A DNA stretch of 64,000 nt, from positions 3,584,001 to 3,648,000 of the forward strand of contig CAVYRF010000002.1 in NCBI GenBank assembly GCA_963770895.1. The letters run 5' to 3'. The position numbers were made by a program, and so were the translations under genes. How positions within the stretch are numbered: position 1 is the stretch's first letter; each line of letters starts with the position of its first letter. This DNA is from an uncultured Acidobacteriota bacterium (GTDB taxonomy: Bacteria > Acidobacteriota > Thermoanaerobaculia > Multivoradales > UBA5704). Of the stretch, positions 15,726-41,325 are shown piece after piece. The notes beneath the pieces were generated by a model that searched no databases, was not told where the DNA came from, and worked only from the letters and a program-made list of their open reading frames with translations.

Positions 15726-15755
15726 TTGACGCAGGTGAATGGATACCGGTAGGCT
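15726..15755 (+). promoter_or_regulatory. Candidate sigma70 promoter of the giant-protein operon
   Basis: TTGACG-N18-TAGGCT in an AT-richer intergenic stretch. Confidence 0.35.
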
Positions 15756-15888
15756 GTATTCCGCTTCAGAGCTGCAGACGCCGGAATTAGCAAACGCGCG
15801 GGCGTGGCGCTCGACCGCTGTCGGGAATGTACTCAGCGGCCGGCGCCCTCATCGTCCGAGGTTCCTTGCTGACCTGCCGGAGGTGATA

Positions 15889-20532: not shown

Positions 20533-21457
20533 AGGTCGTGTGATCGCGCGCTCAGTCCGGCGTGTCCTTTCCTTGCCACTCTGGCTGGCCTTCCACCTCG
20601 CCTGGATCACTGCCGCGAGCGCCCAGCCATCCGGCTGCTCATGGAGCGGTCCTTCCGTCGAGTCGTTTCTGGCTCAACATCCGCCGATAACTGCAAAGGA
20701 GGGGACGCTGGTTGCGGTCGTGGCGGCTTTTCAACGCGCGGGACTCCCCGTGTGCCTTGTCGCGAAGCGAGGAAACCAGCAGGTGAGGCTCGCGTCTGAG
20801 CCTACCCTGGAAGAGGTGCTGAAGGGGCTCGTGAGTCAGGCGCCAGGTTACCAGTTCCGTAGCGTAGACGGCAGGCTCGTGATCTATCCACAGGGGCAGG
20901 CCTTTGATACGCCCGTGGACCTGGGCCCTCTTCAGCGCATGACTCGCGCAGCTGCATACATGACCGTGCTCCACCGGCTGTCGCTTAAGGTGAAGGACCT
21001 TGCGGAGCTACGCAGTGGGATCAGCAACGAGGGCGCGGGGTGGGGTAAGCTCTCCTATTCCGACACGATCGAGGTCGGCGGGTCACGCACCGTCATTGAA
21101 CATTTGATGTCTTTGGTCCAGAAGCGCCCTGCTCTTGCGTTCGACGTAACCATAGATGGCATGCGGCTTCGGTATGAGTTTGTCGATACCCCGCTTTTGA
21201 CAAGGCTGGAGCTGCATTTGCCGCCTACCGTCAAGGTGGGGGAGACCTTCCCTGTAGAGGTGATGGCGAAGCTGGTCGATGGAGCGACAGCGCCCCTTTC
21301 AGGACCGGAATGTTGGGTGGGCTATGCGACAAGTAATCCCGAGGGCCTGGAGATCGATGATGCTGGAATCGTTACGGCACGCCGCAAGGGTACTTTCAAA
21401 ATCTACGTCAACTACCAGCACGTTCCCGCCGTCTACGCCGACGTCACCGTCGAATAG
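20522..21457 (+). CDS. Secreted protein with secretin-N/STN-like region and C-terminal Big_2-like Ig domain
   Basis: Signal peptide ending ASA-Q; LEEVL..L......YQF...DGRLVIYP; YATSNP....IDDAGIVTA..KG. Overlaps the upstream stop; lower GC than its neighbours. Confidence 0.75.
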   Translation: MATEGRVIARSVRRVLSLPLWLAFHLAWITAASAQPSGCSWSGPSVESFLAQHPPITAKEGTLVAVVAAFQRAGLPVCLVAKRGNQQVRLASEPTLEEVLKGLVSQAPGYQFRSVDGRLVIYPQGQAFDTPVDLGPLQRMTRAAAYMTVLHRLSLKVKDLAELRSGISNEGAGWGKLSYSDTIEVGGSRTVIEHLMSLVQKRPALAFDVTIDGMRLRYEFVDTPLLTRLELHLPPTVKVGETFPVEVMAKLVDGATAPLSGPECWVGYATSNPEGLEIDDAGIVTARRKGTFKIYVNYQHVPAVYADVTVE

Positions 21458-21477
21458 AGGCGTACCGTGAGCCTGCG

Positions 21478-28009: not shown

Positions 28010-28199
28010 GCGGATGCGAAAAGCCAGGAAGCCCGGCGGGCCATTCCCGCTGTCAAGGCAAGTGTAAACAGTGAGCCGCGCGGGCTTGTGGCCCCCGCCG
28101 TCGTGGGCAAGCCAGGTGCTTTCGATCCGAACACGCCAGGCTTGCCCTTGCCGGGCGTGCTTGAGCGTCACCCGCCGGGATGCCGGCGCCGCAGGCGGG

Positions 28200-28247
28200 T
28201 CCGGCGGAGCCCCCCGCGCCTGGGTTGGGTTGGGGGACTCCGCCGGA
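28200..28247 (-). terminator. Strong hairpin closing the trb-parB-adhesin operon
   Basis: TCCGGCGGAGCCCCCC / GGGGGACTCCGCCGGA, a 16-bp stem with one G-U on the minus-strand RNA, 16 nt past the stop. No U tract. A second inverted repeat lies at 28105-28147. Confidence 0.55.
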
Positions 28248-28263: not shown

Positions 28264-30171
28264 TTACCGGGGCCGGGACCGGCCGCCGGTGGGAGGAGCG
28301 AGCGGCGCGGCAGGGGGCGGCCCGCCGCCGGGCTTGTTGCGCCGGCGCAGGCGCCCCACGGCCACGCTTCCGAGCAGGGTGAAGAGCGTCGCCAGGCCGG
28401 CGCTGCCCAGGGTCGGGACGGCGGCGGGCTGGGTGGGTGTGCCCGGGCCGCCGGGATTGCCGGGTGGCTGGGGCGGGGTCTGGGCGCTGGAGCAGGCGGT
28501 GTCGCCGGCGGCGTCGGTCAGGCAGGAGCTGTTGGCGATCTGCTGCAGTCCGGCCGGCAGCGGCGCGGCGGCGGTCAAGGCGAAGGTGCGGGTGCCGGAG
28601 GCGTCGGCCGGCAGCGGCCCCAGGGCCAGGGTGCAGGTGGCGCCGGGACCGCCGGCGGCGGGCGAGCAGGTCCAGCCGGGCGAGCTGGCGGCGGCGGCAA
28701 AGGCGGTGGCGTCCGGGACGGTTTCTCCCAGGCTGGCGGCGGCGGCGTCCTGGTCGCCGGTGTTGGCGTAGGCCAGCTGAAAGACCAGGGTGGCGCCGGC
28801 GGCCAGGGCCGGGCCGGCGTAGCTCTTGGCGAGCGACAGGTGCGGGTTGCCGTGGGTGGGCGAGGAGACGCTGGCGCAGACCGGCGCCAGGCCGGCGGCG
28901 CTGGCGCAGGCGGTGTTGGCGATGGCGGTGATGCCGGCGGGAAGCGGCGACGCGACGGTGACCGCGAAGGTGCCATGGAGCGTGGCGCCGGCTGCGAGGG
29001 TACCCAGCGCGTCGGTGCAGCTGGCGCCGGCGGGGCCGGCGGCGGGGACGCAGCTCCAGCCTGGCGAGCCGGCGGCGTCGAAGGCGGTGGCGGCGGGGAC
29101 GGTCTCCGCCAGGACGACGCTGCCGGCTCCCTGGTTGCCGGTGTTTTGCACCGCCAGGTCCCAGGTCAGCACGCCGCCGGGCGCACCGGTGCCCTGGGTG
29201 AGCGATTTGACCACCTTGAGCGCGGCGGCGCCGGTGGTGGCGGTGGCGACGCTGGCGCAGGCGGCGACGGTGGTCGGGCCTTCGCGCACGCAGGCGGTGT
29301 TGTTGATCACGCTGACGCCGGCGGCCAGAGGGCTGGCGAGCGTCACCGCGAACAGGCTGGTGAGCGTGCCGTCAGCGGCCAGGTTGCCGACCGGGTTGCG
29401 GCACAGCGCGCCGGGGTTGCCGTCCGGCGCGCAGACCCAGCCGGCGGCGCTGGCGGCGGCGTCGAAGGTGGTATTGGCCGGCACCGTGTCGACCAGCTGC
29501 AGGCCGCCGTCGCCCAGGCCGCTCAGGTCGCGCACCGTCAGGGTGTACAGCAGGGTCGAACCGGGGGCTCCGGAACCGGCGGCGGTCTTCTGCAGGCTGA
29601 CGTGCGATGGCGTCGCGGCGCCGCAGGCGGCGGCGCCGGCGCCCTGCGAGGCGGCGTCGAACGAGCGGCCGTCGGAGGTCGTCGCCTGGGCGGTGGCGGT
29701 GAAGGCCGGTGAGGTGGTGGACTCGAAGAGCGCCTGCCAGGTGACGACCACGGTCCAGCTGTTGTTGTCGAGCGGGTCTGCCGGACAGCTGAAATTGACC
29801 GCGCCCGAGGTGTCGCCGGGGCCGTTGCCGCGCGCCACGGTGGGCTGGCAGCCGACGGTGAGGTCGTTGTCGATGCGCAGCGTCCCCGGCTGGTAGACCA
29901 GACCGCTGGTGCCGGCGCCGGGGATCGTCAGGCTGCCGGTGAGCGCCGGGGTGCCCGAATCGCGGGTGGCGTAGGTGGCGCTCAGCAGCACCGGCTCGCC
30001 GCAGTCGAGGATGCCGTTGCCGTTGACGTCGACGAAGCCGGCGACCGCGACCTGGAGAGACGGTTGCGCCGCGAGCGGCGGGGCGGCGCCGCCCAGCAGG
30101 ACGGCGCGGATGGTGGCGCCGCGGGTGCGGCGGCAGGCAGGGGGGGTGGTGGGGGTGGCGGGTGGGTGCAT
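28264..30171 (-). CDS. DUF11-repeat surface protein with IPTL-CTERM-like sorting signal
   Basis: AAGGAGG RBS; signal peptide; three L..K.....PG..L.(Y/W/F).L...(N)...(D/E)TVP..T.F..A.S.GW.C..C..G.L..I.N repeats; Pro/Gly linker; VPTLGSAGL, TM, RLRRR. Confidence 0.85.
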   Translation of the reverse strand: MHPPATPTTPPACRRTRGATIRAVLLGGAAPPLAAQPSLQVAVAGFVDVNGNGILDCGEPVLLSATYATRDSGTPALTGSLTIPGAGTSGLVYQPGTLRIDNDLTVGCQPTVARGNGPGDTSGAVNFSCPADPLDNNSWTVVVTWQALFESTTSPAFTATAQATTSDGRSFDAASQGAGAAACGAATPSHVSLQKTAAGSGAPGSTLLYTLTVRDLSGLGDGGLQLVDTVPANTTFDAAASAAGWVCAPDGNPGALCRNPVGNLAADGTLTSLFAVTLASPLAAGVSVINNTACVREGPTTVAACASVATATTGAAALKVVKSLTQGTGAPGGVLTWDLAVQNTGNQGAGSVVLAETVPAATAFDAAGSPGWSCVPAAGPAGASCTDALGTLAAGATLHGTFAVTVASPLPAGITAIANTACASAAGLAPVCASVSSPTHGNPHLSLAKSYAGPALAAGATLVFQLAYANTGDQDAAAASLGETVPDATAFAAAASSPGWTCSPAAGGPGATCTLALGPLPADASGTRTFALTAAAPLPAGLQQIANSSCLTDAAGDTACSSAQTPPQPPGNPGGPGTPTQPAAVPTLGSAGLATLFTLLGSVAVGRLRRRNKPGGGPPPAAPLAPPTGGRSRPR

Positions 30172-30197
30172 GGGTGTACGGTCCCTCCTTTGGGGGG

Positions 30198-31109
30198 TCA
30201 GGCGAGGCAGGCGTACAGCTGCTCGACGCGCTCGTCGGGGCTGCCGTGCGGCTGGCTGCCCAGACGGACCAGCAGCGTGTCGAGCTGCGGCGTGGTGAGC
30301 TGGACGGTCAGCGGCTGGTGGAGCCCGGCGGCGACCGTGGGATCCAGGTCGGGGGCAGGATGGCCGGCGGTGCCGCCGGCAGGGGCAGGGGAAGGATCGG
30401 TGGGGGGCGCCGTGGCGGCGGCGAGGTCACTGCCGGCGTAAGCACCGGCACCGGCGCCGGCGTCGCGCAGCTGGGCGGCGATTTCGATCTGCTGCACCGT
30501 GATCGGGCCGCCGGTGCGCCGCGCCAGCGCCAGCAGGCGATTCTGCTGGGGCGCCGGCAGGCGATCGAACAGGTTGGCGCCCAGGATGCTGGCCAGGAAC
30601 CCCTCGCGCAGCGCGTCGCCGAGCGGGCCGGTGGCGGCGGCCAGGCGCAGGTAGTGGGAGCACCAGGCGGGCGAGCGGTGGTGCCGGCGGGCGAAGTCGG
30701 TCTTGGTCAGGCCGGAGAGCGCCACGGCGCGGGCGATGGCGCGGGCGCGGTCGTAGAGCGACAGGCTGCGCCGCAGCTCGCCGTCGTTTTCGTCGAGCTG
30801 CAGCATGAGCCGGTCGGACGGCGACAGCGGCTCCTGGCGCACCACGACCGGCACCGCCTGCAGGCCGGCCAGCTGGGCCGCCTGCCAGCGGCGGCCGCCG
30901 GTGATGATCTGGAAGGGCGTCGTCGCGCGCGCCGCCGGCAGCGGGTGGGGCGCCACCAGCAGCGGCTGGATGACGCCGTGCGCCCGCACGCTGGCGGCCA
31001 GCGCCTCCAGGTCCGGCCCGGCGATCGTGCTGCGCGGCTGGTCCGGGTCGGGGGCGATGGCGGACACGGCGACCAGCAGGGCGCCGGCCGGCGCGGCGGG
31101 AGCGCTCAA
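30198..31109 (-). CDS. parB: ParB/KorB-family CTP-clamp DNA-binding protein
   Basis: PDPDQPR, LAASVRAHGVIQPLLV, IITGGRRWQAA, QLDEN, and HTH TKTDFARRHHRSPAWCSHYLRL. TTG start overlaps the trbI stop. Confidence 0.85.
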   Translation of the reverse strand: MSAPAAPAGALLVAVSAIAPDPDQPRSTIAGPDLEALAASVRAHGVIQPLLVAPHPLPAARATTPFQIITGGRRWQAAQLAGLQAVPVVVRQEPLSPSDRLMLQLDENDGELRRSLSLYDRARAIARAVALSGLTKTDFARRHHRSPAWCSHYLRLAAATGPLGDALREGFLASILGANLFDRLPAPQQNRLLALARRTGGPITVQQIEIAAQLRDAGAGAGAYAGSDLAAATAPPTDPSPAPAGGTAGHPAPDLDPTVAAGLHQPLTVQLTTPQLDTLLVRLGSQPHGSPDERVEQLYACLA

Positions 31110-32851
31110 GGAGGGCCTCCCTGGGCGGAGGAGCCGGCCGCCTGGCGCGGCGTGCCGGGCAGATCGGCGGTGACGAAGACAAAGAAGGGCGTGCCGGCGG
31201 GCACGCGCAAGGTCGGCTGCACGGCCAGGTCGCGGCGCACCAGCTCCAGGCCGACGCTCGACAGCTCCTGGCCCAGGGCGGCGGCGGCGACCTGCTGGCT
31301 GCTGGGCGCCGTCGCGAAGCCGCTGGCCGCCGGCTGCGACAGCTGGGCGCCGGCGCCCAGCAGCGACAGCAGCACGGCATCGCCGAACACCCGCCGCAGG
31401 TGGTTGTCGGTCTGCGCCGGCAGGCCGGCGGCGCCGGTGGCGTCGGCGGCGGGCAGGCCGGCGACTTCGACGCTGCCGCCGTCGGCGAACAGGAAGCGGG
31501 TCCAGGCGACCAGCAGGCGGTTCTGGCCGGCGGCGACCTGGTCCTGGTAGCGCCCCAGCAGGCGGGTGCCGCGCGGGATGACGACCTGTCGCAGGGTGCC
31601 GTCGTAGACGTCGCGGCTGACCTGCGCCAGCAGCGGCCCGGGCAGACCGGAATCGACCGCCGTCAGCAGGGTCGCCGAGATCAGCGTCCCCGCCGCCACC
31701 GTCCCGCCGGCGGCCGGCGCGCGGTAGCGCACCGCGAGCGGTTCGCCGCCTGCCGGGGGGTGCCCGGCCAGCGCCTCCCAGCGCGAGCCGCCAGGACTGC
31801 CGCTGGCGGCGGCGCTCGCTCCGGCGCCGGGTCCGCCGCCCGCTCCGGCTCCGATGCCCGCTCCGGCACCGCCGGCACCGCCGGCACCGCCGGCTTCAAT
31901 GCCAGTTCCGGCTCCGATTTCTGCTCCGCCACCGGCGCCTGCTCCGGCGGCGCCCGCGGCGTCCGCCGGCCGGCGTGGCGGGCTGCCTCCTTCACCGGCG
32001 CCGCCGGTGACCGGGCCGACATTCGGGGGCGCCGGCGGGGCTGCCGCGGCGTCTGGCCCTGCGGCATCGCCACCTGCGCGGCCCTGGCTTCCGCCGCCGG
32101 CGTCCCCGCCACCGTCCCCGCGGCTACCCCTGCCGCCATCCCAGCCTTCGCTGGCCGGGAACCAGCGGCCCTGCCGTGGCGCACCCTGAGCGGCGCCGAT
32201 CGCGATCGCCAGCGGCGAGCGCAGGGCGCGCTGGAAGGCGGCGCGGGGGCTGCCGGGCGGTTCGCCGGTGCCAGTCGTGGTTGCAGTTGCGAAGGGTCCG
32301 CCGCCGGCCCCATAAGCTTCCGCGCCGCCCTGTCCGCCGGCGCCTGCCTGGGCGGTGCCGGCCGCGCCGGCCGCCGCGTTGCGATCGCCGCCGGGCGCCT
32401 GCAGCAGGCGCATCAGGCGGGCGGTTTCGGCCGCCGCGGACGGGTCGGCGCCCTGAGCGTCGCCGGCGCCATCGACCGCGCCGGTGCCGCCTGCGGCACC
32501 GATCCCGGCGCCGGCTCCGGCGGCACCAGCGCCGGCGGCTCCGGCCCCGCCTCCGGCGGCCAGTCCAGCCGCGATCGCCGCGGCAGCATCGCCGGCGCCC
32601 GCCGGCCGCCCGGCCACGGTGCCGGGAGCCAGGCGCAGGAAGCCGGGGGCGCCGCCTTCGAGGCGTTGCGCCAGCGCCAGGCCGGTCGCCCGCGGCGGCG
32701 GTGGCGGCGCGGCCAGGAAGACCGCCGCCAGCAGGGTGACGATCAGGATGAGCGCCGCCACCAGCAGCACGGCGCGGTTGAGCCGCCGTACGGTGTGGGA
32801 CAGGATGGGCGGCACCTTGGACGGCAGCGGCGAGCCGGAAACCGGGTCCAT
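31106..32851 (-). CDS. trbI: T4SS core protein TrbI/VirB10
   Basis: RRLNR plus TM, long Gly/Ala linker, AGTLI.ATLLTAVDSGLPG, IPRGTRLLG.Y, GQNRLLVAW.R, DNH, QPTL.V..G. Confidence 0.93.
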   Translation of the reverse strand: MDPVSGSPLPSKVPPILSHTVRRLNRAVLLVAALILIVTLLAAVFLAAPPPPPRATGLALAQRLEGGAPGFLRLAPGTVAGRPAGAGDAAAAIAAGLAAGGGAGAAGAGAAGAGAGIGAAGGTGAVDGAGDAQGADPSAAAETARLMRLLQAPGGDRNAAAGAAGTAQAGAGGQGGAEAYGAGGGPFATATTTGTGEPPGSPRAAFQRALRSPLAIAIGAAQGAPRQGRWFPASEGWDGGRGSRGDGGGDAGGGSQGRAGGDAAGPDAAAAPPAPPNVGPVTGGAGEGGSPPRRPADAAGAAGAGAGGGAEIGAGTGIEAGGAGGAGGAGAGIGAGAGGGPGAGASAAASGSPGGSRWEALAGHPPAGGEPLAVRYRAPAAGGTVAAGTLISATLLTAVDSGLPGPLLAQVSRDVYDGTLRQVVIPRGTRLLGRYQDQVAAGQNRLLVAWTRFLFADGGSVEVAGLPAADATGAAGLPAQTDNHLRRVFGDAVLLSLLGAGAQLSQPAASGFATAPSSQQVAAAALGQELSSVGLELVRRDLAVQPTLRVPAGTPFFVFVTADLPGTPRQAAGSSAQGGPP

Positions 32852-32854
32852 GGC

Positions 32855-34033
32855 TCACTCCTCCCTGCCGGCGGCGCCGGCGGCACCGGGGGCGCCGGCG
32901 GTGGCGGCCGGGTCGTCTGCCGTCCGCCGGGGGCGCTGGCGGCCGGCCGCGTGGTTGACGATTTCGAGCTGCTGCCGGTGACCCTTGCCGGCGCCGTCGC
33001 CGATCACCAGCACGGCGCGGTCGACGACGCGGTCGGTGACGTAGGCCTGCTGCTCCAGCCGGTAGTTGAGCAGGGCCAGGGAGCCGTCGGGCTGGGCCGC
33101 CAGCAGCGCCGGCGCCTCGGCGTGGCGGGCGGCGTCGGGGAGCAGGATGTAGGTGTGCTCGCCGTCGTCGAACACCTGCGACGGCGTCCACGGGAAGCCG
33201 CGGTCGCGGCGCCAGCGGTAGTCGAAGTTGAGCTGCGACAGCGCGACGCCGGGGGCCAGCGCGGCCGGCGCCCGCGCCGCGGCGGCGGCGGCCGCGGCCT
33301 GGGCCGCCGCGGCGGCGCGCTCGGCGTCGGCCCAGCGCCGCACCAGGTCTTCGGGGTAGTAGAAGCGCAGCAGGCCGGTGTAGGGCAGGCGTGGGTTGTA
33401 GCGTTGCGCGGCGCCGCGCGGTTCGCGGCAGGGCGGCGAATCCAGGCTGACCTCGTAGACCCGCCGGTCGGTCGCGATCACCAGGTTGGTGCTGACGTCG
33501 CACGCGGTCGGCTTGACCAGGACCAGCGGGGTGCGGGCTCCCGGCCCCGACGCCGCGGTCTGCACCAGCCAGCGTTCGCTGTCGCCGGTGGCGGTGGCGA
33601 GCAGCGTTTCGGCTTCCTCCAGCTGGATCGCGCAGGCGCGCAGCGGCGCGCACCGCACCACCGGCCGGGTGTGGCCGTAGGGCACCAGCACCGTCGCGCC
33701 GCCCAGCTCCAGCGACTTGAGGTCCGCCGCGTCGCCGCTGGCGCGCCAGGCGCGCGTCAGCGCCTCCCCTGCGCCCGCGCCCTGGTCCGCGCCGTCGCCG
33801 CCGGCGGCGGATGGCGCCGCGGCGGCGGCCGCGCCGGCGCCCGCGGCAGCGGCAGGGGCGGTGGGGTCGGAGACCGGGGCAGGGGCGGCGCCGGCGGTCC
33901 AGGGGCAGATGAGCAGCACGGCGAGCCAGCAGGCCGGCGCCGGCCACGGCAGGCGGCGGCGCCGGGAGCGGGCGGCGGCGAGGGCGCCATGGCAGGCGGC
34001 GCCGGAGGCGGGGGAGAGGGGCGGGCGGATCAT
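32855..34033 (-). CDS. trbG: T4SS core protein TrbG/VirB9
   Basis: CAPL....IQL...E, GDSERW, VKP....STNLVIATDRRVY, LNFDY, WTPSQVFDDG..TYI, APAL, NYR, Y.TDR. Confidence 0.93.
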   Translation of the reverse strand: MIRPPLSPASGAACHGALAAARSRRRRLPWPAPACWLAVLLICPWTAGAAPAPVSDPTAPAAAAGAGAAAAAAPSAAGGDGADQGAGAGEALTRAWRASGDAADLKSLELGGATVLVPYGHTRPVVRCAPLRACAIQLEEAETLLATATGDSERWLVQTAASGPGARTPLVLVKPTACDVSTNLVIATDRRVYEVSLDSPPCREPRGAAQRYNPRLPYTGLLRFYYPEDLVRRWADAERAAAAAQAAAAAAAARAPAALAPGVALSQLNFDYRWRRDRGFPWTPSQVFDDGEHTYILLPDAARHAEAPALLAAQPDGSLALLNYRLEQQAYVTDRVVDRAVLVIGDGAGKGHRQQLEIVNHAAGRQRPRRTADDPAATAGAPGAAGAAGREE

Positions 34034-34806
34034 CGCGGGTCTCCCATGGAGAGCTGCGTCCAGTTGATCTCGGTGACGAACAGGCCGAGCGGGTTGGTGA
34101 GGATGGCGGCGGCGGTCTCGGGCGGCTGCTGCTCGACGCGCAGGTAGGCTTCCCAGGCGGCGGCGCGCGGCGCACCGGCGAAACGGGGGCGCTCGATCTC
34201 GCGCCAGCTGACCTTCCAGGTCTGGCTGCGCGGCACCTGCAGCACGGCGGTGACGTCGACCTGGCGGGTGATGCCGCGGCCGAGCACGCGCGGGTCGTGG
34301 GCGGGATCGGCGAACCAGGCGTCGAGGGTGGCGCGGGCGGGGCCAGCCAGGTAGGCGTAGGCGTCCAGCAGCCGCACGCGCTCGGCTTCGGGATCGGCGG
34401 AGACGGCGCGCAGGTTGCGGATGAGCGCCGCCAGCTGGAACACGGTGACGCGGCTGTCGCCGCGGCGCAGACGTTCGGCGGGACCGAACGCCAGGGCCTG
34501 GCCGAAGCGATCGACTTCGACCACGTAGGGGGTGATGCGCGAGGCGGCGCCCTGGCGGATGTAGGCGGCCAGGACGCCGGCCAGCAGCGCCAGCAGGGCG
34601 AAGCTGACCAGCTGCCAGTTGCGCTTGCCCTTGGCGAGGTCGCCGAAGACGCTGGCGAACTCGTGGCGCGCGGCCAGGAACGGATTGGCCGCGGGCCGCC
34701 GGGCCGCGGCGACGTCCCTGCTGCGATCGGTGCGATCGGTGCGATCGGTGCGATCGGGCCGAGCGGGCCGATCGGGGCGGGCGGTGCGAGCGGGCCGGCC
34801 GGTCAT
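34030..34806 (-). CDS. trbF: T4SS inner-membrane protein TrbF/VirB8
   Basis: NPFLAAR.E......G......NW, TM, ITPYVVEVDRFG, AYAYL, TWKVSWRE, NPLGLFV.EINW. ATG 34806 overlaps the trbL stop. Confidence 0.93.
   Translation of the reverse strand: MTGRPARTARPDRPARPDRTDRTDRTDRSRDVAAARRPAANPFLAARHEFASVFGDLAKGKRNWQLVSFALLALLAGVLAAYIRQGAASRITPYVVEVDRFGQALAFGPAERLRRGDSRVTVFQLAALIRNLRAVSADPEAERVRLLDAYAYLAGPARATLDAWFADPAHDPRVLGRGITRQVDVTAVLQVPRSQTWKVSWREIERPRFAGAPRAAAWEAYLRVEQQPPETAAAILTNPLGLFVTEINWTQLSMGDPR
34722..34757. repeat. Perfect 9-bp tandem repeat x4 within the trbF 5' end
   Basis: TGCGATCGG at 34722, 34731, 34740 and 34749, encoding DRT repeats. Confidence 0.9.
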
Positions 34807-35819
34807 CGCAGCGAGTCCTGGAGCCGCAGGGTGGCGCCCTGGGTGAGCCGCGCCGCCACCGCCGCCGGCACCCGCCACACCAGCAGACAGAGGATGAGGG
34901 CGCCGGCGAGCAGCTGGAAATCCAGCGTCAGCGACGGCGCCGGGGGCTGTCCGCCGGCGCCGGCCGGCGTCAGGCTGAGCACCACCCACTGCCGCGACAG
35001 AGCGGTGCCGACGCCGGCCAGCAGGTACAGCAGGTAGACCCGGACGCCGGTCTGGAAGGCGTACAGCAGGTAGCCCTCGGCAAAGGGCGCGGTGCCGCGG
35101 AAGCTGGCGAAGCCCAGGAACAGCGCCCCGCCGGTGAGCACGATGTAGGTTTCGACCAGCGTCATGCAGATCTGCGCCGCGATGCCGGCGTAGGCCAGGA
35201 CCACCAGCAGCGCCGTCGCCGAGGCCACGATGTTGCCGGTGGGATCGGTGAGAAAGCCGGCGTTGCCGACGGCGAGCAGCAGGTTGGAGGCGATGGTGAT
35301 GCCCAGGTCGAGCAGCTGCGACGGGTTGACGGCGGTGGTGCCGGTGGCGCTCTGGCCGGCCGCCTCGAAGCCGCGGGTGATGGCGGGCACCCACAGCGGG
35401 AACAGGTAGATCAGGCTGAACAGGAACGACAGCAGCATGAACTTGCGCAGCAGCGCCGCCAGCGCCGCGTCCAGGCCGTCGCGGCCGAGCGCCCACCAGA
35501 TGCCGGACACCGCCAGCTCCAGCGTGGCGAGCAGCGCGAAGGTCCGTTCGGCCAGCGGCACGATGCGCGCAAGCCAGCCGGCGGCGGCCGTTTCGTAGTC
35601 CAGGACCAGGCCGTCCACGACGCCGGCCGCGTCCTGCTGCCGCGGCACCCCCGGCTCGCCGGCGGCGGCGCCGGCGGCGCGGGCGGGCACAGCGAGCGCC
35701 AGCGCCAGCAGCACCACCACTGCCAGCGCCGGCAGCACCGGCAGCGCCAGGCGGATCGGGCAAGCTCTCCCCATTGCCGCCGCGCTGGGGCGGCGGGCAG
35801 GTCCATGCAGGCTTGACAT
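34803..35819 (-). CDS. trbL: T4SS polytopic protein TrbL/VirB6
   Basis: F.LLATLEL, I..GF..AG, NPSQLLDLG, LVE.YI, FLGF....T...AE.YL, VPAAVA. Position between trbJ and trbF. Confidence 0.9.
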   Translation of the reverse strand: MSSLHGPARRPSAAAMGRACPIRLALPVLPALAVVVLLALALAVPARAAGAAAGEPGVPRQQDAAGVVDGLVLDYETAAAGWLARIVPLAERTFALLATLELAVSGIWWALGRDGLDAALAALLRKFMLLSFLFSLIYLFPLWVPAITRGFEAAGQSATGTTAVNPSQLLDLGITIASNLLLAVGNAGFLTDPTGNIVASATALLVVLAYAGIAAQICMTLVETYIVLTGGALFLGFASFRGTAPFAEGYLLYAFQTGVRVYLLYLLAGVGTALSRQWVVLSLTPAGAGGQPPAPSLTLDFQLLAGALILCLLVWRVPAAVAARLTQGATLRLQDSLR

Positions 35820-35831
35820 GGCGGCTCCGCG

Positions 35832-36650
35832 TCAGTCGGCCGGCCAGGCGGGCGGCGTGAAGGTCCAGCCTGGCGAGGCGTTGATGGCGGCGGCGCGGGC
35901 GGCGTCGGCGGTCATGGCGCCGAAGGTGGCGCGCGCCTGGGCTTCGCGGTTGATCCAGTAGCCGCCGGCGACCGCCTGCAGGTTGGTCTGGACGGCGAGC
36001 GCCTGGCGGGTCAGCAGCTGCTCCTGGGCGGAGAAGCCGGCGAGCGTGGTGAGCAGCTCGAGCGCCTGCTGGTGACCCTGGGTGCCGGCCATCTGGGCGC
36101 GGATCGCGGCCAGCAGCTGCTCGCCGGCGGCCAGCTCCTGGCCCTGGCGGGCGGCGGCGGCGAGGCCGGCGCGCAGGGTGTCGAGCGCCCGGTCGGTCTG
36201 CTGCGGGTAGGTGGTGCCGAAGGTCGCGGTCCAGCTCTGCCAGCCCGGATAGGTGGCGGTGAACTCGCCGCCGGGGTCGGGCAGCGAATAGCCGAGCGAC
36301 TGCCCCGAGCGCGCCAGCGCCGCCAGGTCGCCCAGCTCGCTCGCCACCTGGCGCCATGCCGGCGCGTCGAGCTTGCGCAGCGCCTGGAGCTGGTAGCGGA
36401 TCTGCTGCGCCTGGTTGGCCAGCTGCTCCACCTGCTGGTAGATCTGCAGGGCGAACTGCAGGTAGTGGACGTAGTGCCAGTGCGCGTTGAGCGCGATGTG
36501 CGCCACGTCGGTCACCGGGATGATCGCCGCCGCGGGCGGCGTCGCGGCGGCCGTCTGCAGGACCAGCGCCAGGGTCGCCGCGGCGGCGACCGTGCGGCGG
36601 CGGCGCGCGGCAGCGGGGGAGGGGGCGGGGGGGCGTGGCAGGATGGTCAT
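35832..36650 (-). CDS. trbJ: T4SS protein TrbJ (VirB5-like)
   Basis: Signal peptide, PVTD, Q-rich helix QIYQQVEQLANQAQQ, F..TYPG, S/T.G..QALE. ATG 36650 overlaps the trbE stop. Confidence 0.85.
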   Translation of the reverse strand: MTILPRPPAPSPAAARRRRTVAAAATLALVLQTAAATPPAAAIIPVTDVAHIALNAHWHYVHYLQFALQIYQQVEQLANQAQQIRYQLQALRKLDAPAWRQVASELGDLAALARSGQSLGYSLPDPGGEFTATYPGWQSWTATFGTTYPQQTDRALDTLRAGLAAAARQGQELAAGEQLLAAIRAQMAGTQGHQQALELLTTLAGFSAQEQLLTRQALAVQTNLQAVAGGYWINREAQARATFGAMTADAARAAAINASPGWTFTPPAWPAD

Positions 36651-39223
36651 CGCGGGGTCTCCTTCTGGACGGCGGGGGTGGCGGGTGCGAAGCCGGCGGC
36701 GAGCCGGTCGTAGAGCGGCAGGTGCGCGGCCAGGCCGCGGCTTTCCAGCCAGGCGCGCGGCCAGCCGGCGCCGTGGCTTTCGATCAGCTGGCGCGCCTGG
36801 GCGATCGCCTCGGGCAGGGTCATGCCCTCGGGGGTGCCGACGAAGGCGAGCGCCGCCGGGCCCAGGCCCAGCTCGAACAGGCGCGAGCCGCGCGGGCTCT
36901 TGAAGTAGTAATCGCGCTTGCGGCGGGCGTGGGCGATGAGGTGGATCTCGGCGTCGTTGAGGCCCAGGTCCAGGTAAAGGGCGCGGTGGCCGGGCGCGGC
37001 GGCCTCGGGGTTGGCCAGCAGGATGCGGGTGGGGCAGCTCTCCAGCAGCACGTGCCGCGACGGGCTGTCCCACAGCTGCGACAGGCTCTGCGTCGCCAGC
37101 ACCACGGCGGCGTTCTGCTTGCGCAGGGTGAGCAGCCACTGCTTGATGCGCGCCGCGAAGGCGCTTTTCATCAGCGGCAGCCAGGCTTCCTCGATCACCA
37201 GCAGCGACGGCCGCCCCTGCTCCAGGCGCTGTTCGACGCGATGGAAGAGATAGAGCAGGACCGGCAGCAGCACGCGGTCGTCCATGTCCACCAGGCGCTT
37301 GAGCTCGAAGACCTGGTAGGGGCCGCCGTCTTCCAGGTCGTCTCTCCCGGCGTCGAGCAGGTGGGCCAGGTTGCCTTCGGCATAGGGGGCCAGAGCGGCC
37401 GCCAGCTCGCGCTCCTGCAGCTGCGGCACCAGCTCGGACAGGCGCCGGTGCTGCCGCGGCTCGGTCGACAGCAGCGCCAGCGCCGCGGCCAGGGCCTGGC
37501 GCGCCGGCGGCGTCACCGCGACGCCGTTGACCGCCAGCACACCCTCCAGCCACTCCAGCGCCCACAGCCGTTCGCCGCGGCGGTCGATGGCGGCGAGCGG
37601 TTGCAGCGCCACCGGCTCGTTGACCAGGTCGTAGTGCCGGGCGCCGGCGGCGCGCGCCAGCAGCCACCCCGAGTAGCCGACGTCGAAGCTGAACGCCTGC
37701 GCCCGCGGGTAGCGCAGGAACTGCGCCAGCAGCAGGTTGAGCAGCGTGCTCTTGCCGGCGCCGGTGCCGCCGACGACCAGGGTGTGGCCGACGTCGTCGT
37801 CGTGCAGGTTGAGCCAGAACGGGGTGGCGCCGGTGGTCGCCGCCCACAGCAGCGCCGGGCTGCGGCGCGGGAACAGCGGCGACGGGTTGTGCGGCAGGCC
37901 GGGCCAGACGCTGGTGACCGGCAGCAGGTCGGCCAGGTTGCGGCTCGACACCAGCGGCCGCCGCAGGTTGGCCCAGCCGTGGCCGGGGAGGCTGCCGCGC
38001 AGCGCCTCCAGGGCGTTGACGTCTTCGACGCGGGCGGTGAAGCCGCGGTCGTTGAGCGCCTTGACCACTTCGGCGGCGTTCTGGTCGGCGCGCGCCGCGT
38101 CGCGCTCGGCGACCAGCACCACCGGCGTGTACAGGCAGAAGCGGACGCGGCCGGAGGCGTTGTCCGCCGCCGCCAGCGCCGCGTCGCGCGCCATGGCGCC
38201 GGCGTCCTGATCCAGGAACAGCTCGTCGTCGCGCTCGCGTGCGGCGCTGGGCGCGGCGCCGTCGCCCACCGTCAGCTCGCGCAGCCAGGAGGCGGCGCCG
38301 CGGCGCTTTTTGAACCAGCCCAGGCGGACGCGGGCGATGTGGCGCGCCGCGACGGCCTGCGACAGCGGGATGATGCGGTGGGAGGCGCGGAAGGCGAAGC
38401 CCAGGCCGCCCAGGAAGTCCAGGATGCCGGAGAACGATTCGTGTGGGAAACCGTGGATGGCGACGATGCGCACCGCCAGGTCGCCCACCCGCGGCATCCA
38501 GCCGCCGGCGACCGGCTGGTCGGCGAGCAGCCCGTCCAGCCAGGCGCCGTGGGCCGGCGCCTTGACCGGGTGGTCGAGGCCGGTCAGGCAGGCGTGCAGG
38601 TGGGTGAGCAACTCGTCCGAGCCCAGGCGCACCACCTTGAGATGGGTGGACAGGCGCCGTTCGAGCTGCGCCGCCTCCGACTGGAAGGTGTCGTGCAGCT
38701 CGCTCCAGGCCCGCAGGCCGCCGCCCTGGCGGCCGCGCACGAAGAGGGCCGCCAGGCGCGAATACAGCTCGCGCGGCGGCAGGTAGGTGGCGGCCAGCAC
38801 GCTGTCGCTGACGAAGTGGCCTCCCGCCGTCTCGTAGGCGGCGCGCCGCTCGGCGTCGAGCAGCGCGGTGACCGGGTCGGGGAAGGCCCCCGGCGGCGCA
38901 TAGCCGAGCGCCGGGCGGCGGCGAAAATCGACGTGGAACATCCAGCCGTCGCCGTAGGGGAGCAGGGCGTCGTGCAGCTGGGCCGCCAGCGCCTCGAGCT
39001 CGGCGGCGGTGGCGGCCGCCAGGTCGGGGCCGCGGTAGCTCCAGGCGGTGAGCAGCGAGCCGTTCTTTTGCAGCACGGTGCCCGGCGCCACCAGGTGCAG
39101 CCAGCCGAGCAGGTCGCACAGGCCGCGCGGCTCGCGCCGGTGCTCGCGCAGGCGGTCGAGCAGCTGCGCGGCGGCGCCGCCGGCCACCAGGGTCAGCGCG
39201 GTTGTGATCGGCGTCAGGCTCAT
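36647..39223 (-). CDS. trbE: T4SS ATPase TrbE/VirB4
   Basis: QKNGS....YRGPDL, FPDPVT.L.D.ERR, GSLPGH..AN.RRP, LNLH..DVGHTLVVGGTGAGKS, W..TLRKQNA.V..ATQS, ESCPTRI.L.N. ATG 39223. Confidence 0.96.
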   Translation of the reverse strand: MSLTPITTALTLVAGGAAAQLLDRLREHRREPRGLCDLLGWLHLVAPGTVLQKNGSLLTAWSYRGPDLAAATAAELEALAAQLHDALLPYGDGWMFHVDFRRRPALGYAPPGAFPDPVTALLDAERRAAYETAGGHFVSDSVLAATYLPPRELYSRLAALFVRGRQGGGLRAWSELHDTFQSEAAQLERRLSTHLKVVRLGSDELLTHLHACLTGLDHPVKAPAHGAWLDGLLADQPVAGGWMPRVGDLAVRIVAIHGFPHESFSGILDFLGGLGFAFRASHRIIPLSQAVAARHIARVRLGWFKKRRGAASWLRELTVGDGAAPSAARERDDELFLDQDAGAMARDAALAAADNASGRVRFCLYTPVVLVAERDAARADQNAAEVVKALNDRGFTARVEDVNALEALRGSLPGHGWANLRRPLVSSRNLADLLPVTSVWPGLPHNPSPLFPRRSPALLWAATTGATPFWLNLHDDDVGHTLVVGGTGAGKSTLLNLLLAQFLRYPRAQAFSFDVGYSGWLLARAAGARHYDLVNEPVALQPLAAIDRRGERLWALEWLEGVLAVNGVAVTPPARQALAAALALLSTEPRQHRRLSELVPQLQERELAAALAPYAEGNLAHLLDAGRDDLEDGGPYQVFELKRLVDMDDRVLLPVLLYLFHRVEQRLEQGRPSLLVIEEAWLPLMKSAFAARIKQWLLTLRKQNAAVVLATQSLSQLWDSPSRHVLLESCPTRILLANPEAAAPGHRALYLDLGLNDAEIHLIAHARRKRDYYFKSPRGSRLFELGLGPAALAFVGTPEGMTLPEAIAQARQLIESHGAGWPRAWLESRGLAAHLPLYDRLAAGFAPATPAVQKETPR

Positions 39224-39555
39224 GGCGTCGTCGGCAGCGCCGGGTCGGGAGGCGCGGGCGGCGCGTGGAGCGGCGCGCCGGCGGCGTAGAAGTCGGCGCC
39301 GCGCAGGCTGCGCACGTAGAGGTCGGCGACGCGCGGGTCCTTGGCGCACAGGAAGACGGCCAGGGGGTGGAAGACCAGGGCGTAGAACAGGGCGAGCGCC
39401 AGGGTGAGCAGGTGCGGCCCGGCTTCGAACAGCAGCAGGAACACCGCCGCCGCCTCGAACAGCAGGAACTGCGGCGCGACGCCGGCGTAGAGCACCGGCC
39501 GCCACAGCGAGGCGTGCAGGCGCGTCTTGGCCGGGGTGGTGGGCGTCGAGGTCAT
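39220..39555 (-). CDS. trbD: T4SS protein TrbD/VirB3
   Basis: LHASL.RPVL.AGV, two TMs, H......AK.DP....Y.R....Y.A. Confidence 0.88.
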   Translation of the reverse strand: MTSTPTTPAKTRLHASLWRPVLYAGVAPQFLLFEAAAVFLLLFEAGPHLLTLALALFYALVFHPLAVFLCAKDPRVADLYVRSLRGADFYAAGAPLHAPPAPPDPALPTTP

Positions 39556-39577
39556 CGCGCTGGTCTCCGCCGTCTGG

Positions 39578-39940
39578 CTACAGCAGCGCGCCCTGGAAGC
39601 CGAGCGCATCCACCAGGTTGACCGCGCCGAGCACGATGGCGACGCCGAACAGCGCCTGGCCGAAGCGCTTGGCGCCCTGCTCGTGGCTGGTGAACGCCCA
39701 CATGGCGCCGCCCAGCACGAACGCCAGCGCGGCAATGGTCTTGGCGGTGGGACCGGTCAGGTTGTCCACCACCACCTGCAGCGGGTGGTTCCAGGGCAGG
39801 TCGGCGCCGCCGGTGCCGGCGACCGCCGGGCGGGTGGCGACCGCCGCCGCGGTGAGGGCGGCGGCCAGCCAGGCGCCGACGCGGCGGGTGACGGCGGTGG
39901 TGGCGGTGGCGGGTCTGGCAGGACGGAGCGGTGGGCGCAT
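39578..39940 (-). CDS. trbC: T4SS pilin TrbC/VirB2
   Basis: Signal peptide, LPWNHPL......LTGP.A, two hydrophobic helices, C-terminal GALL. Confidence 0.92.
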   Translation of the reverse strand: MRPPLRPARPATATTAVTRRVGAWLAAALTAAAVATRPAVAGTGGADLPWNHPLQVVVDNLTGPTAKTIAALAFVLGGAMWAFTSHEQGAKRFGQALFGVAIVLGAVNLVDALGFQGALL

Positions 39941-40013
39941 GACGGGGTTTCCTCCGGGGTGGGGTCCAAGGCGGCCGTGGCAGCTGGGCGGTGGTTGGGG
40001 AGCGGTGGCGGGC

Positions 40014-40997
40014 TCACTCCGCGGGCAGCGAGCGCAGGCGGTAGGCGGCGCCGTCGTAGCCGCCGACCGCGGCCACCTCGGTGACGCGGCGCCCCTGGCT
40101 GCCGCCGGCGATCATCACCACCATCTGGACGGCGGCGCCGACCAGGTGCGGCTGCGGGCCGACGCGGTTGCGCTGTGCCAGGCGGTCCAGGCGGTCGAGC
40201 GCCGCCAGCGGGTCGTCGGCATGGAGGGTGGCGCAGCCGCCGGGGTGTCCGGTCTGCCAGGCGTCGCACAGGTCGAGCGCGGCTTCGTCGCGCACCTCGC
40301 CGACCACGATGCGGTCGGGCGAGGTGCGCAGCGCCGCCTTCACCAGGTCCTTGAGCTTGAGCGCTTCGGTGGTGCGCAGCGCCAGGCAGTCGGCGGCCGA
40401 ACAGCGCAGCTCCACCGTGTCCTCCAGGATGACGATGCGCGCGCGCGGCGCCTGGCGGGTGATCTCCAGCAGGATGGCGTTGCACAGCGTCGTCTTGCCG
40501 CTGCCGGTGCCGCCCGCCACCAGCACGTTGCGGCGCGCCGCCACCGCGTCGACGATCGCCGCGTGGTGGCGCCGGGCGAGCACGCCGGCCGTGACGTAGT
40601 GATCCAGGCTGTACACCACCGCCGGCGGCTTGCGCAGGTTGAAGCTGGGAGCGGCGACGAGCGGCGGCACGAACCCCTGCAGCCGCGCGCCCAGGAAGGT
40701 CGCGGCCGGCAGCTCCGCTTGCAGCTGCGGCCGCGCCGCATTGATCACGGTGCCCAGGCCGCTGGCCACGATGTTGAGGAACCGCTGCACCTGGCTGGCG
40801 GTGAGCGCCGTGCCGCTGTCGCGGCGGCCGCGGGCGCGGCTGTCGAGGAACAGCCGGCCGCCCGGATTGACGTAGATCTCGGTCACGTCGGGGTCGGCCA
40901 TGGCAGCCATCACCGCCGGCCCCACCGCCCGCGCCAGGGCGTCGCAATGGCGGCGTCCGGGGTCCATGCCGCCTGTCTCCGCGTCGTGCTCGGCCAT
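40014..40997 (-). CDS. trbB: T4SS ATPase TrbB/VirB11
   Basis: DP.VTEI..NP.G.L, LRKP, VAGGTGSGKTT, ILEDT.EL, LRTSPDRIVVGEVR, W.TGHPGG.ATLHA. AAGGAGG RBS. Confidence 0.96.
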   Translation of the reverse strand: MAEHDAETGGMDPGRRHCDALARAVGPAVMAAMADPDVTEIYVNPGGRLFLDSRARGRRDSGTALTASQVQRFLNIVASGLGTVINAARPQLQAELPAATFLGARLQGFVPPLVAAPSFNLRKPPAVVYSLDHYVTAGVLARRHHAAIVDAVAARRNVLVAGGTGSGKTTLCNAILLEITRQAPRARIVILEDTVELRCSAADCLALRTTEALKLKDLVKAALRTSPDRIVVGEVRDEAALDLCDAWQTGHPGGCATLHADDPLAALDRLDRLAQRNRVGPQPHLVGAAVQMVVMIAGGSQGRRVTEVAAVGGYDGAAYRLRSLPAE

Positions 40998-41024
40998 CCG
41001 CGTACCTCCTTGATCGCGGAAGCC

Positions 41025-41053
41025 ATCCTAGACACTATTCTACGAATAGTCAA
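41025..41053 (-). promoter_or_regulatory. Sigma70 promoter of the trb operon with an overlapping palindromic operator
   Basis: Minus strand TTGACT-N17-TAGGAT. Inverted repeat ACTATTC-N3-GAATAGT at 41034-41050 covers the spacer and half of the -35 box. Confidence 0.8.
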
Positions 41054-41153
41054 GACTAGTGAGCGAATATATTTGAAGGCAGCCGAAGCCGATGCCGGAA
41101 CCGCGCCCGGACACGGGGGCCGGGGGGAGGGGTCAATCTGGTCCGCGGGAAAT

Positions 41154-41325
41154 GCGGGTCAGCTCAGGGGGGCGGCCGAGCCGTGGGAGGAGCGGATGAG
41201 CTCAGGGGGAGGCCGCCGAGCCGCCGAAGGAGCGGGTCAGCTCAGGGGAGGCCGCCGAGCCGCCGGAGGAGCGGGTCAGCTCAGGGGAGGCCGCCGAGCC
41301 GCGGGAGCAGCGGGTCAGCTCAGGG
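41154..41325. repeat. ~39-bp tandem repeat, about 4.4 copies (VNTR)
   Basis: Consensus GCGGGTCAGCTCAGGGGAGGCCGCCGAGCCGCCGGAGGA. Units start at 41154, 41192, 41232, 41271 and 41310 (partial, includes the sulfatase stop). Confidence 0.92.

Follow-up and report, generated by a model that had tools for sequence, protein, structure and literature searches.

An intact Trb-type mating-pair formation operon in a Thermoanaerobaculia chromosome, and an unlinked operon with the conjugation functions that it lacks

Can a set of genes for a conjugation channel that stands alone in a chromosome, with no gene beside it for processing or delivering DNA, still take part in conjugation? The question is raised by a locus in a stretch of 64,000 nucleotides (hereafter the window) from an uncultured soil acidobacterium, corresponding to positions 3584001-3648000 of contig C2 in an 8.16-Mb assembly of three contigs (C1, C2 and C3; genome label G000). 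This locus is composed of eleven open genes on the minus strand (window 28264-40997), in the order trbB-C-D-E-J-L-F-G-I, a gene for a ParB-like protein and a gene for a protein with DUF11 repeats. It is the type T mating-pair formation operon (MPF-T, Trb) of a family of integrative and conjugative elements (ICEs) common in this Thermoanaerobaculia genus, and it has its own promoter. Only the MPF operon is left at the window site, where it still looks functional from its sequence. It is ordinary mobile-element machinery in an unusual split arrangement: the genome contains one intact MPF-T operon and, on contig C1, one intact operon with every conjugation function that the MPF operon lacks. The explanation that we favour, with about an even chance of being right, is that an intact ICE-derived Trb module works in trans with the unlinked transfer operon of C1.

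The window has a G+C content of 71%, so raw lists of open reading frames (ORFs) are full of spurious frames; genes were chosen by third-position G+C (GC3), which gives a crude gene list from which small genes could escape. Gene identities were obtained from Pfam and NCBIfam profile matches and the junctions were read off the sequence. The operon and its boundaries, in the order of transcription, are the following (window coordinates).

41025-41053, minus strand: promoter-like site of sigma-70 type, TTGACT-17-TAGGAT, upstream of trbB (promoter scan)
40014-40997, minus strand: trbB, VirB11-type ATPase, 327 aa (TrbB_P 333.8 bits, cut-off 304.55; Walker A GGTGSGKT intact)
39578-39940, minus strand: trbC, VirB2-type pilin, 120 aa (PF04956, 62.3 bits)
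39220-39555, minus strand: trbD, VirB3-like, 111 aa (VirB3 PF05101, 27.8 bits)
36647-39223, minus strand: trbE, VirB4 ATPase, 858 aa from the start in the ATGA overlap (TrbE NF010447, 745 bits; Walker A GGTGAGKS)
35832-36650, minus strand: trbJ, VirB5-like, 272 aa (TrbJ_Ti, E=3e-19, 69 bits, under the cut-off of 100.55)
34803-35819, minus strand: trbL, VirB6-like, 338 aa (TrbL_P 137.5 bits, cut-off 128.85)
34030-34806, minus strand: trbF, VirB8-like, 258 aa (VirB8, 121 bits)
32855-34033, minus strand: trbG, VirB9-like, 392 aa (CagX, 136.7 bits)
31106-32851, minus strand: trbI, VirB10-like, 581 aa (TrbI, 163.4 bits)
30198-31109, minus strand: ParB/KorB-like protein with CTPase fold, 303 aa, TTG start (ParB_N, 68.8 bits)
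28264-30171, minus strand: DUF11-repeat surface protein, 635 aa, distal gene of the operon (DUF11, 70.7 bits)
28190-28245, minus strand: G+C-rich hairpin (CCGGCGGAG.CCCCC ... GGGGG.CTCCGCCGG) with no T-run, just past the DUF11 stop codon (read from the sequence)

The genes are tightly coupled, with ATGA overlaps at the D/E, E/J, L/F and F/G junctions, a TTGA overlap between TrbI and ParB, and gaps of 73, 22, 12, 3 and 26 nt at the remaining junctions. The locus belongs to the MPF-T class by the presence, in one place, of a VirB4-family ATPase (TrbE) and of the accessory set TrbB, C, D, J, L, F, G and I. The score of TrbE with NF010447 is under the equivalog cut-off of 1020 bits, and PF03135 matches it with 37.6 bits (34.4 bits in the genome search), over the cut-off of 21. 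TrbJ, TrbF, TrbG and TrbI are clear NCBIfam matches (E values from 3e-19 to 8e-45) that all remain under the equivalog cut-offs, which indicates a divergent lineage. The Pfam search gave no match for TrbJ, which is 55-64% identical across same-genus copies; the mature part of TrbC displays 94-99% identity to these copies. The start of trbD was set 22 nt past the trbC stop, and its homologs have 105-111 aa. The N-terminus of TrbF contains a 9-bp coding repeat in eight copies, and the middle of TrbI is of low complexity and rich in Gly, Ala and Pro. In this region the promoter scan gave 2 sites, where shuffled sequences lead one to expect 0.1; the hairpin was missing from the output of the terminator scan.

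No tRNA and no att-like repeat were found in the 64-kb window, and no relaxase, type IV coupling protein (T4CP), TraF or integrase domain was detected among the 31 flanking ORFs scanned and the two genes upstream of trbB, as far as the crude gene list goes. The neighbours of the operon are tatA on one side and, on the other side, a sulfatase and a 1572-aa glycosyltransferase-methyltransferase (GT1572). An earlier reading of the bare letters of this stretch (the sequence-only reading) had described the eleven-gene order with its overlaps and gaps of 3-73 nt, a promoter and a closing hairpin belonging to the operon, a window free of tRNA, relaxase, coupling-protein, TraF and integrase genes, and flanks made of tatA and glycan genes; the profile matches, the junctions and the scans agree with it on each of these points. 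It had also considered the G+C content as host-like, which is contradicted by a value of 76.1% for the operon; its 20-kb flanks have 68.8% and 71.2%, and the whole genome 70.8%. Finally, it had presented the locus as a type IV secretion system (T4SS) with no DNA-transfer genes, which holds for the window and fails for the genome, where a nikA-like, relaxase, traF and traG operon is found on C1. The locus is not a conjugative system in one piece in the CONJscan sense, as the T4CP and the relaxase are not co-located with the MPF genes, nor is it by itself an ICE, as the window contains no integrase domain or tRNA (serine and DDE recombinases were not surveyed genome-wide). Concerning the assembly, contigs from four soil or unlabelled runs were short, of low depth and from related organisms, and none spanned either flank. 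An exact scan of metagenome contigs with a 32-nt promoter stretch gave 0 matches, and a scan based on TrbB recovered 18 loci, all with at most 58% identity and too distant for context statistics.

The transfer operon of contig C1 is composed of four genes.

C1:557141-557500: nikA-like relaxosome gene (PF21983, 39.5 bits against a cut-off of 27)
C1:552858-557144: relaxase, 1428 aa (PF03432; His-rich motif HRDSGHGHVH kept)
C1:552028-552861: traF (Peptidase_S26)
C1:549743-552031: traG (domains T4SS-DNA_transf, TrwB_AAD_bind and TraG-D_C; best NCBIfam model IncP-type TraG, 439.5 bits)

ATGA overlaps join nikA to the relaxase gene, the relaxase gene to traF and traF to traG, and TraG keeps its Walker A (GSGKST) and Walker B (LLLLDE) motifs. 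The whole-genome search detected one VirB4, which is the TrbE of the window, and one canonical T4CP, the TraG of C1, located at least 2.76 Mb from the trb operon in any contig arrangement. The genome encodes one TraF of T4SS type, which is 58% identical to the TraF adjoining trbB in a sister genome; S26 has one other match, which occurs as a fusion with a lanthipeptide synthetase. The genome search gave no relaxase of TrwC type. The C1 operon has a G+C content of 78.5%, and both operons are above their flanks (69-73%). Both have been kept exactly, from the promoter region to the last gene, with 320-520 bp to the neighbouring host genes. An 18-bp perfect palindrome located 54 bp upstream of nikA is a candidate repeat of an origin of transfer (oriT) or a candidate operator, as judged from the sequence only; this region shows nothing remarkable in its fold (z = 0.82). 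Within about 30 kb of the C1 operon, none of the called ORFs carries an integrase domain; the closest tyrosine recombinases are located at 202 and 263 kb from the trb operon and, in the case of the C1 operon, at about 880 kb. A comparison of junctions between the two loci gave only chance-level matches of 8-16 nt.

In the proposed mechanism, TraF, whose role is described in PMC2789088, would mature the TrbC pilin, and the Trb proteins would assemble the channel and the pilus. NikA and the relaxase would nick a putative oriT near their own operon, in the palindrome-bearing region, and TraG would hand the DNA, as nucleoprotein, to the Trb channel. That TraF is encoded only in the C1 operon is, at the sequence level, the best argument against a self-sufficient trb operon. 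The operon looks functional because its eleven genes are open, its ATPase motifs are intact and it shows no extra divergence. The split system would no longer be mobile as an ICE and could mobilise oriT-linked DNA or small relaxase-bearing elements. If the two halves do work in trans, they represent a natural conjugation system that is itself immobilised and could mobilise chromosomal DNA; failing this, they offer a clean snapshot of the breakdown of an ICE module by module. To our knowledge, conjugation in Acidobacteriota is essentially unstudied. A limited literature search on ICEs, T4SS and relaxases in Acidobacteria, by title and abstract, returned general surveys, none describing these elements, and we make no claim that they are unpublished.

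Other matches of the genome inventory were examined. A second TraF seemed to be present at C2:3860096 and was rejected, being the N-terminal domain of a lanthipeptide synthetase of RamC/LanC type; this 1034-aa protein (C2:3859988-3863092) associates an S26 signal-peptidase-like domain with RamC_N, kinase and LanC domains, and is a synthetase that carries its own peptidase. On C2, weak matches to PF02534 were rejected as coupling proteins and correspond to two large, atypical NTPases of the T4CP superfamily (C2:4640072-4644613 and C2:5375197-5378190; TrwB_AAD_bind 44.9 and 54.4 bits); the former also carries a PQQ beta-propeller and neither is near T4SS genes. A stop-free frame of 1064 codons (C1 549743-552937) spans traG and runs back over traF in another frame. 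At about 79% G+C such long open frames mislead, and an automatic caller could give a false "fused" T4CP of 1031 aa. A second nikA-like gene is paired with the gene of a 264-aa relaxase at C1:1263926-1265096, without coupling protein and beside fragments of a primase/AAA_25 gene; this pair may be the remains of a mobilisable island able to use the Trb channel. Four to five tyrosine-recombinase matches are grouped within 4 kb at C2:3826825-3830748, 202 kb from the trb operon.

TrbE was detected in 27 of the 61 genomes searched (G000 included), among them all nine other genomes of the genus and 16 of the 36 other genomes of the family; these counts come from a stricter first look and are floors. 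Several genomes contain more than one TrbE copy, and the three better-assembled genomes that were checked (G002, G003 and G009) have four to seven coupling-protein matches each. The genus is rich in Trb-type elements. The contexts of the related loci, with the identity of their TrbE to that of the window, are as follows.

G003 ortholog, 75%: ICE-like element with SSB, TrwC relaxase, 553-aa T4CP, BrnA antitoxin, ECF sigma factor, TraF, trbB to trbI, ParB, DUF11, primase/AAA_25 and a MarR-like protein
G003 second element, 57%: traG, trb genes and DUF11, without ParB
G009_C45, 76%: contig of 11 kb, on which the 3.4 kb upstream of trbB contain nothing recognisable
G009_C5, 75%: trbB to DUF11 only; no relaxase, T4CP, TraF, primase or SSB homolog on the 68.7-kb contig
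G002_C85, 74%: trbD to DUF11 only, trbB lost and trbC reduced to its end, over about 98 kb examined
G016 and G044, 48-50%: traG, trbB to trbI and ParB

The DNA homology between the window and the loci of its relatives is confined to positions 28483-40954 and stops at the operon edges, and none of the window's flanking genes was found near the operon in G003, G002 or G009. The operon has 74-76% G+C in all four genomes versus 68-71% around it, so this richness is a signature of the element family. In a tree built from 1512 gap-free columns of TrbE, TrbF, TrbJ and TrbL, G009_C5 groups with the G003 ortholog, apart from G009_C45. As the copies are grouped across genomes, the family moves between genomes. 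The terminal branches measure 0.236 for the window, 0.234 for the G003 ortholog and 0.208 for G009_C5; the window copy shows no extra divergence compared with the copy in a complete element. For an empty site, contig C43 of G009 has homologs of a beta-helix protein, of GT1572 and of the sulfatase, with no trb gene in the next 6.7 kb and no tatA either; G003 and G002 have no ortholog of the glycosyltransferase gene, and no clean empty site was obtained. The sequence-only reading had considered the operon as long domesticated, and had named synteny at this locus in relatives and a TrbE tree following the species tree as checks. The homology ending at the operon edges, the lack of synteny in G003, G002 and G009, the two G009 copies that are not sisters and the G003 ortholog within a full ICE-like element do not support it. 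The locus looks mobile and not domesticated.

Relatives of the C1 operon also exist, as relaxase-traF-traG or traF-traG blocks (TraG 54-64% identical) in G009 and G002; no trb genes were found downstream of these blocks over 18 kb (G009_C15) and 8 kb (G009_C82). How the two halves came apart was approached through the layout of the chromosome. The cumulative GC skew decreases over C2:0-1.85 Mb, then increases over the rest of C2 and throughout C1. With C1 joined in reverse orientation ahead of C2, the arms measure 4.09 and 3.98 Mb, which fits one circular chromosome of about 8.1 Mb; for this reason C1 was rejected as a separate megaplasmid, this being less likely. The C1-C2 join is deduced from the skew and the 88-kb contig C3 has no fixed place. 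In this layout dnaA is at C2:1.657 Mb, trbB is 1.97 Mb and traG 2.21 Mb away from it, and the two genes are on opposite replichores and opposite strands. A single inversion centred on the origin, one of whose breakpoints fell between traG and trbB, may have caused the split.

Several points weigh against the favoured explanation. The co-function in trans is a prediction from the genes' sequences. Stand-alone copies recur (G009_C5), one of them without trbB and most of trbC (G002_C85), which resembles decay. The inversion idea is weak, since it depends on the deduced join and its post hoc odds are about 0.03 by rough arithmetic, and G009 gives it no support, the homologs of the C1 genes next to traG (RNase D side) being absent beside its sulfatase. 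The G003 ortholog is associated with a TrwC relaxase and with a T4CP only 35-41% identical to the C1 TraG, and in G009 and G002 the nearest TraG relatives (54-64%) and the trb copies are on different contigs. The C1 transfer genes are therefore not of the partner types of the closest Trb relatives, and the two operons may come from different elements. The ParB and DUF11 proteins of the window (303 and 635 aa) are shorter than their orthologs in the genus, for which the ORF lengths give upper bounds. All genes have a pairwise dN/dS under 1 (0.20-0.84), with signs of weak constraint for ParB (0.76-0.84) and DUF11 (0.41-0.66); the NG86 estimates are biased upward at about 94% GC3, where synonymous sites are strongly constrained, and were given little weight for this reason.

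The same observations lend themselves to a serious alternative, which we hold to be possible though rather unlikely: an ICE decayed by deletion and rearrangement, and both operons are idle leftovers, possibly of two elements, that have not yet received disabling mutations. The recurrent stand-alone copies, G002_C85 with its missing trbB and most of its trbC, the value near 0.8 for ParB, and a C1 TraG and relaxase differing from the types linked to the closest Trb ortholog are what such decay would produce. So are the distances to any integrase gene (202 kb or more from the trb operon, about 880 kb or more from the C1 operon), the absence of att-like repeat and tRNA, and the other debris of the genome, namely a relaxase domain with an internal stop at C2:176617, a 28-bit relaxase fragment at C1:1837602 and a primase/AAA_25 homolog standing alone at C2:2951286-2953097. 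Decay accounts less well for fifteen genes (eleven in the trb operon, four on C1) that are all open with their catalytic motifs kept, for a window branch no longer than that of the copy in a complete element and for the retention of exactly one copy of each needed function. In addition, two operons that are exact from promoter region to last gene, with 320-520 bp to host genes, would be a rare outcome of random deletion.

A different fate for the channel would be exaptation as a relaxase-less T4SS, in which the channel and the DUF11 protein serve for adhesion, contact-dependent protein delivery or DNA release and uptake, independently of the C1 genes. We consider it unlikely. The locus fits the description of MOBless T4SS in PMC3548315, its operon has its own promoter and joins a surface repeat protein to the channel, and a second intact stand-alone copy exists in G009. 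However, DUF11 and ParB genes are also found in complete, relaxase-bearing elements and therefore do not mark a new function; the locus lacks synteny within the genus; its copy number varies and its tree mixes genomes, unlike a fixed host function; TraF, which P-type systems usually require to mature their pilin, is encoded only in the C1 operon and ties the channel to that operon; and no candidate effector genes were identified. Among the functions that the sequence-only reading had offered, only work with unlinked coupling and relaxase genes fits what was found, whereas nothing points specifically to repurposing for adhesion or delivery.

The favoured explanation can be carried further, to a two-locus conjugation machine fixed in the chromosome and retained by the host. 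It would nick at the palindrome region beside the nikA-like and relaxase genes and transfer chromosomal DNA, in the manner of Hfr (high frequency of recombination) strains, together with small relaxase-only islands between Thermoanaerobaculia cells; a ParB-type clamp would set its expression and the DUF11 adhesin would hold mating pairs. In this extended form the proposal is improbable. Least probable is a polypartite ICE, in which site-specific recombinases would join separate chromosomal pieces ahead of transfer, as happens with the tripartite ICEs of Mesorhizobium (split-ICE precedent in PMC5882170): the two loci jointly make a complete transfer set and a tyrosine-recombinase cluster (C2:3826825-3830748) is 202 kb from the trb operon, but there is no recombinase gene within 23-28 kb of that operon nor among the ORFs called within about 30 kb of the C1 operon, whose nearest recombinase of tyrosine type (the only type surveyed genome-wide) is at about 880 kb, no repeats are shared between the junctions of one locus and those of the other, and the flanking genes look like ordinary host genes.

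The two distal genes deserve separate treatment. ParB follows trbI in five of the six relatives' loci that extend that far, and DUF11 follows in all four such loci of the genus. Since both recur after trbI in related elements, they belong to the element family and are, on this sequence comparison, its distal genes and not host additions. Few proteins of the operon are less conserved than the ParB-like protein (48-53% identical). Its DQPR, GGRRWQA and EN..R boxes are retained in alignments with ParB 6t1f and Spo0J 1vz0, and its N-terminal domain, its GxxRxxA arginine patch and the neighbouring boxes place it, at the sequence level, in the ParB/KorB family of CTPase clamps. The best structural-sequence matches are chromosomal ParB/Spo0J proteins (E about 1e-16), KorB 8qa8 being matched at E=3.3e-5. 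No ParA gene adjoins the parB-like gene, among the operon and flanking ORFs scanned, and for this reason a regulatory role like that of KorB or BisD is favoured over partition. The protein is most likely a putative CTP-dependent regulator of the transfer genes. KorB and BisD are ParB-family CTP clamps that regulate transfer genes (PMC11790492, PMC12409273). With KorB of IncP-1 plasmids (RK2/RP4) and BisD of ICEclc, the window protein shares the N-terminal CTPase fold with the DQPR, GxRRxxA and EN..R motifs and the location of its gene beside trb genes; it differs from them by the lack of an adjoining ParA/IncC, KorA or TrbA, and its CTP binding is a prediction. After trbI, the plasmid pMsip01 similarly carries a ParA-ParB-TrfB block.

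A 7+7 bp palindrome (ACTATTC-GTA-GAATAGT, about 41034-41050) is located between the hexamers of the trbB promoter and is a candidate operator. The trbB promoters of the relatives' copies are also sigma-70-like, and a perfect palindrome is present between the -35 and -10 hexamers in three of four copies, with a different sequence each time.

Window: arm of 7 bp, reached in 27 of 5000 shuffles
G009_C45: arm of 6 bp, reached in 152 of 5000 shuffles
G009_C5: arm of 5 bp, reached in 481 of 5000 shuffles
G003 ortholog: no palindrome above chance

Our guess is that these palindromes are candidate sites and a possible target of the ParB-like protein. Their differing sequences and the low conservation of ParB fit a co-evolving repressor-operator pair and demonstrate none.

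The DUF11 protein, whose tail looks like those of cell-surface proteins, is most likely a mating or cell-contact adhesin. Its orthologs occupy the same place in G003, G009 and G002 and have 883-906 aa (upper estimates); in the second G003 element it is a homolog that comes after trbI. Its C-terminus consists of a PTL-hydrophobic-Arg tail resembling IPTL-CTERM, which reads ...AAVPTLGSAGLATLFTLLGSVAVGRLRRRNK..., and the IPTL-CTERM model PF18203 gives 19.3 bits on it, just under the cut-off of 20.8.

Among the known systems, the closest in organisation are the ICEs of Tn4371 and ICEMlSymR7A type, and the locus works like, and descends from, Trb systems of this type. The Tn4371-family scaffold is given in PMC2789088 as int-repA-parA-parB...traF-rlxS...traR-traG-trbBCDEJLFGI, with core genes more than about 75% identical. 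The trb order is identical in the window, trbK and trbH being absent from the operon, and an IncP-type TraG, a relaxase like VirD2/RlxS and a TraF peptidase are present in the genome. In contrast, traG is at least 2.76 Mb away instead of just upstream of trbB, and the order on C1 is nikA-relaxase-traF-traG. Integrase, repA and parA genes are missing from the surroundings, trbI is followed by ParB-like and DUF11 genes and the host is an acidobacterium. The comparison is one of gene order and content, not of sequence identity; since only the trb order matches, with traG not adjacent and no int, repA or parA in the window, the locus is not assigned to the Tn4371 family. MOBless T4SS are chromosomal systems without neighbouring relaxase or integrase, often exaptations as the authors argue (Guglielmini et al. 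2011, 2012; PMC3548315). As an MPF-T locus without neighbouring relaxase, the window operon comes within this definition; it differs by the relaxase of cognate type, T4CP and TraF elsewhere on the same chromosome and by a closest sister-genome ortholog in a relaxase-bearing element. A T4SS called "relaxase-less" from its surroundings can thus have its full complement elsewhere in the genome, which matters for counting exaptations. In mobilisable elements, which conjugate with functions supplied in trans, the nikA-relaxase-T4CP module is likewise apart from the MPF genes; here, however, both halves are chromosomal, single-copy and without integrase, and neither is a recognisable self-contained mobile element. 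The acidobacterial MPF-T systems form a basal lineage in PMC3548315, as known there from one genome.

Some further features were observed around the operon and its relatives. A 39-bp tandem repeat (4.7 copies, 87% match, window 41143-41325) lies between the sulfatase stop and the trbB promoter, and its 21-nt core is found nowhere else in the genome. It was rejected as a feature of the family, not being found upstream of trbB in the G009 copies; one guess is that it represents a putative binding array of the ParB-like protein. A 51-bp intergenic element (window about 28091-28141), between tatA and the DUF11 gene, is present with 86-90% identity at 10 other sites of C1 and C2, with about 12 shorter partial matches, and looks like a host repeat of repetitive extragenic palindrome (REP) type. 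Large defence-type proteins, TIR-CHAT-STAND and TIR-NB-ARC-TPR, adjoin the trb elements of two sister genomes (L040:16371-20000 and L041 in G009 C5; L025:9180-13136 in G003), and a TIR-WD40 protein is encoded near the G002 trb copy. Finally, a gene pair at window 15739-25524, encoding a 1597-aa Glucodextranase-B/CBM96 protein and a 1348-aa LVIVD/TSP3/Big_7 protein, is present in four copies on C2 that are 70-93% identical; the LVIVD protein has five copies in G003 and belongs to a multicopy surface-protein module.

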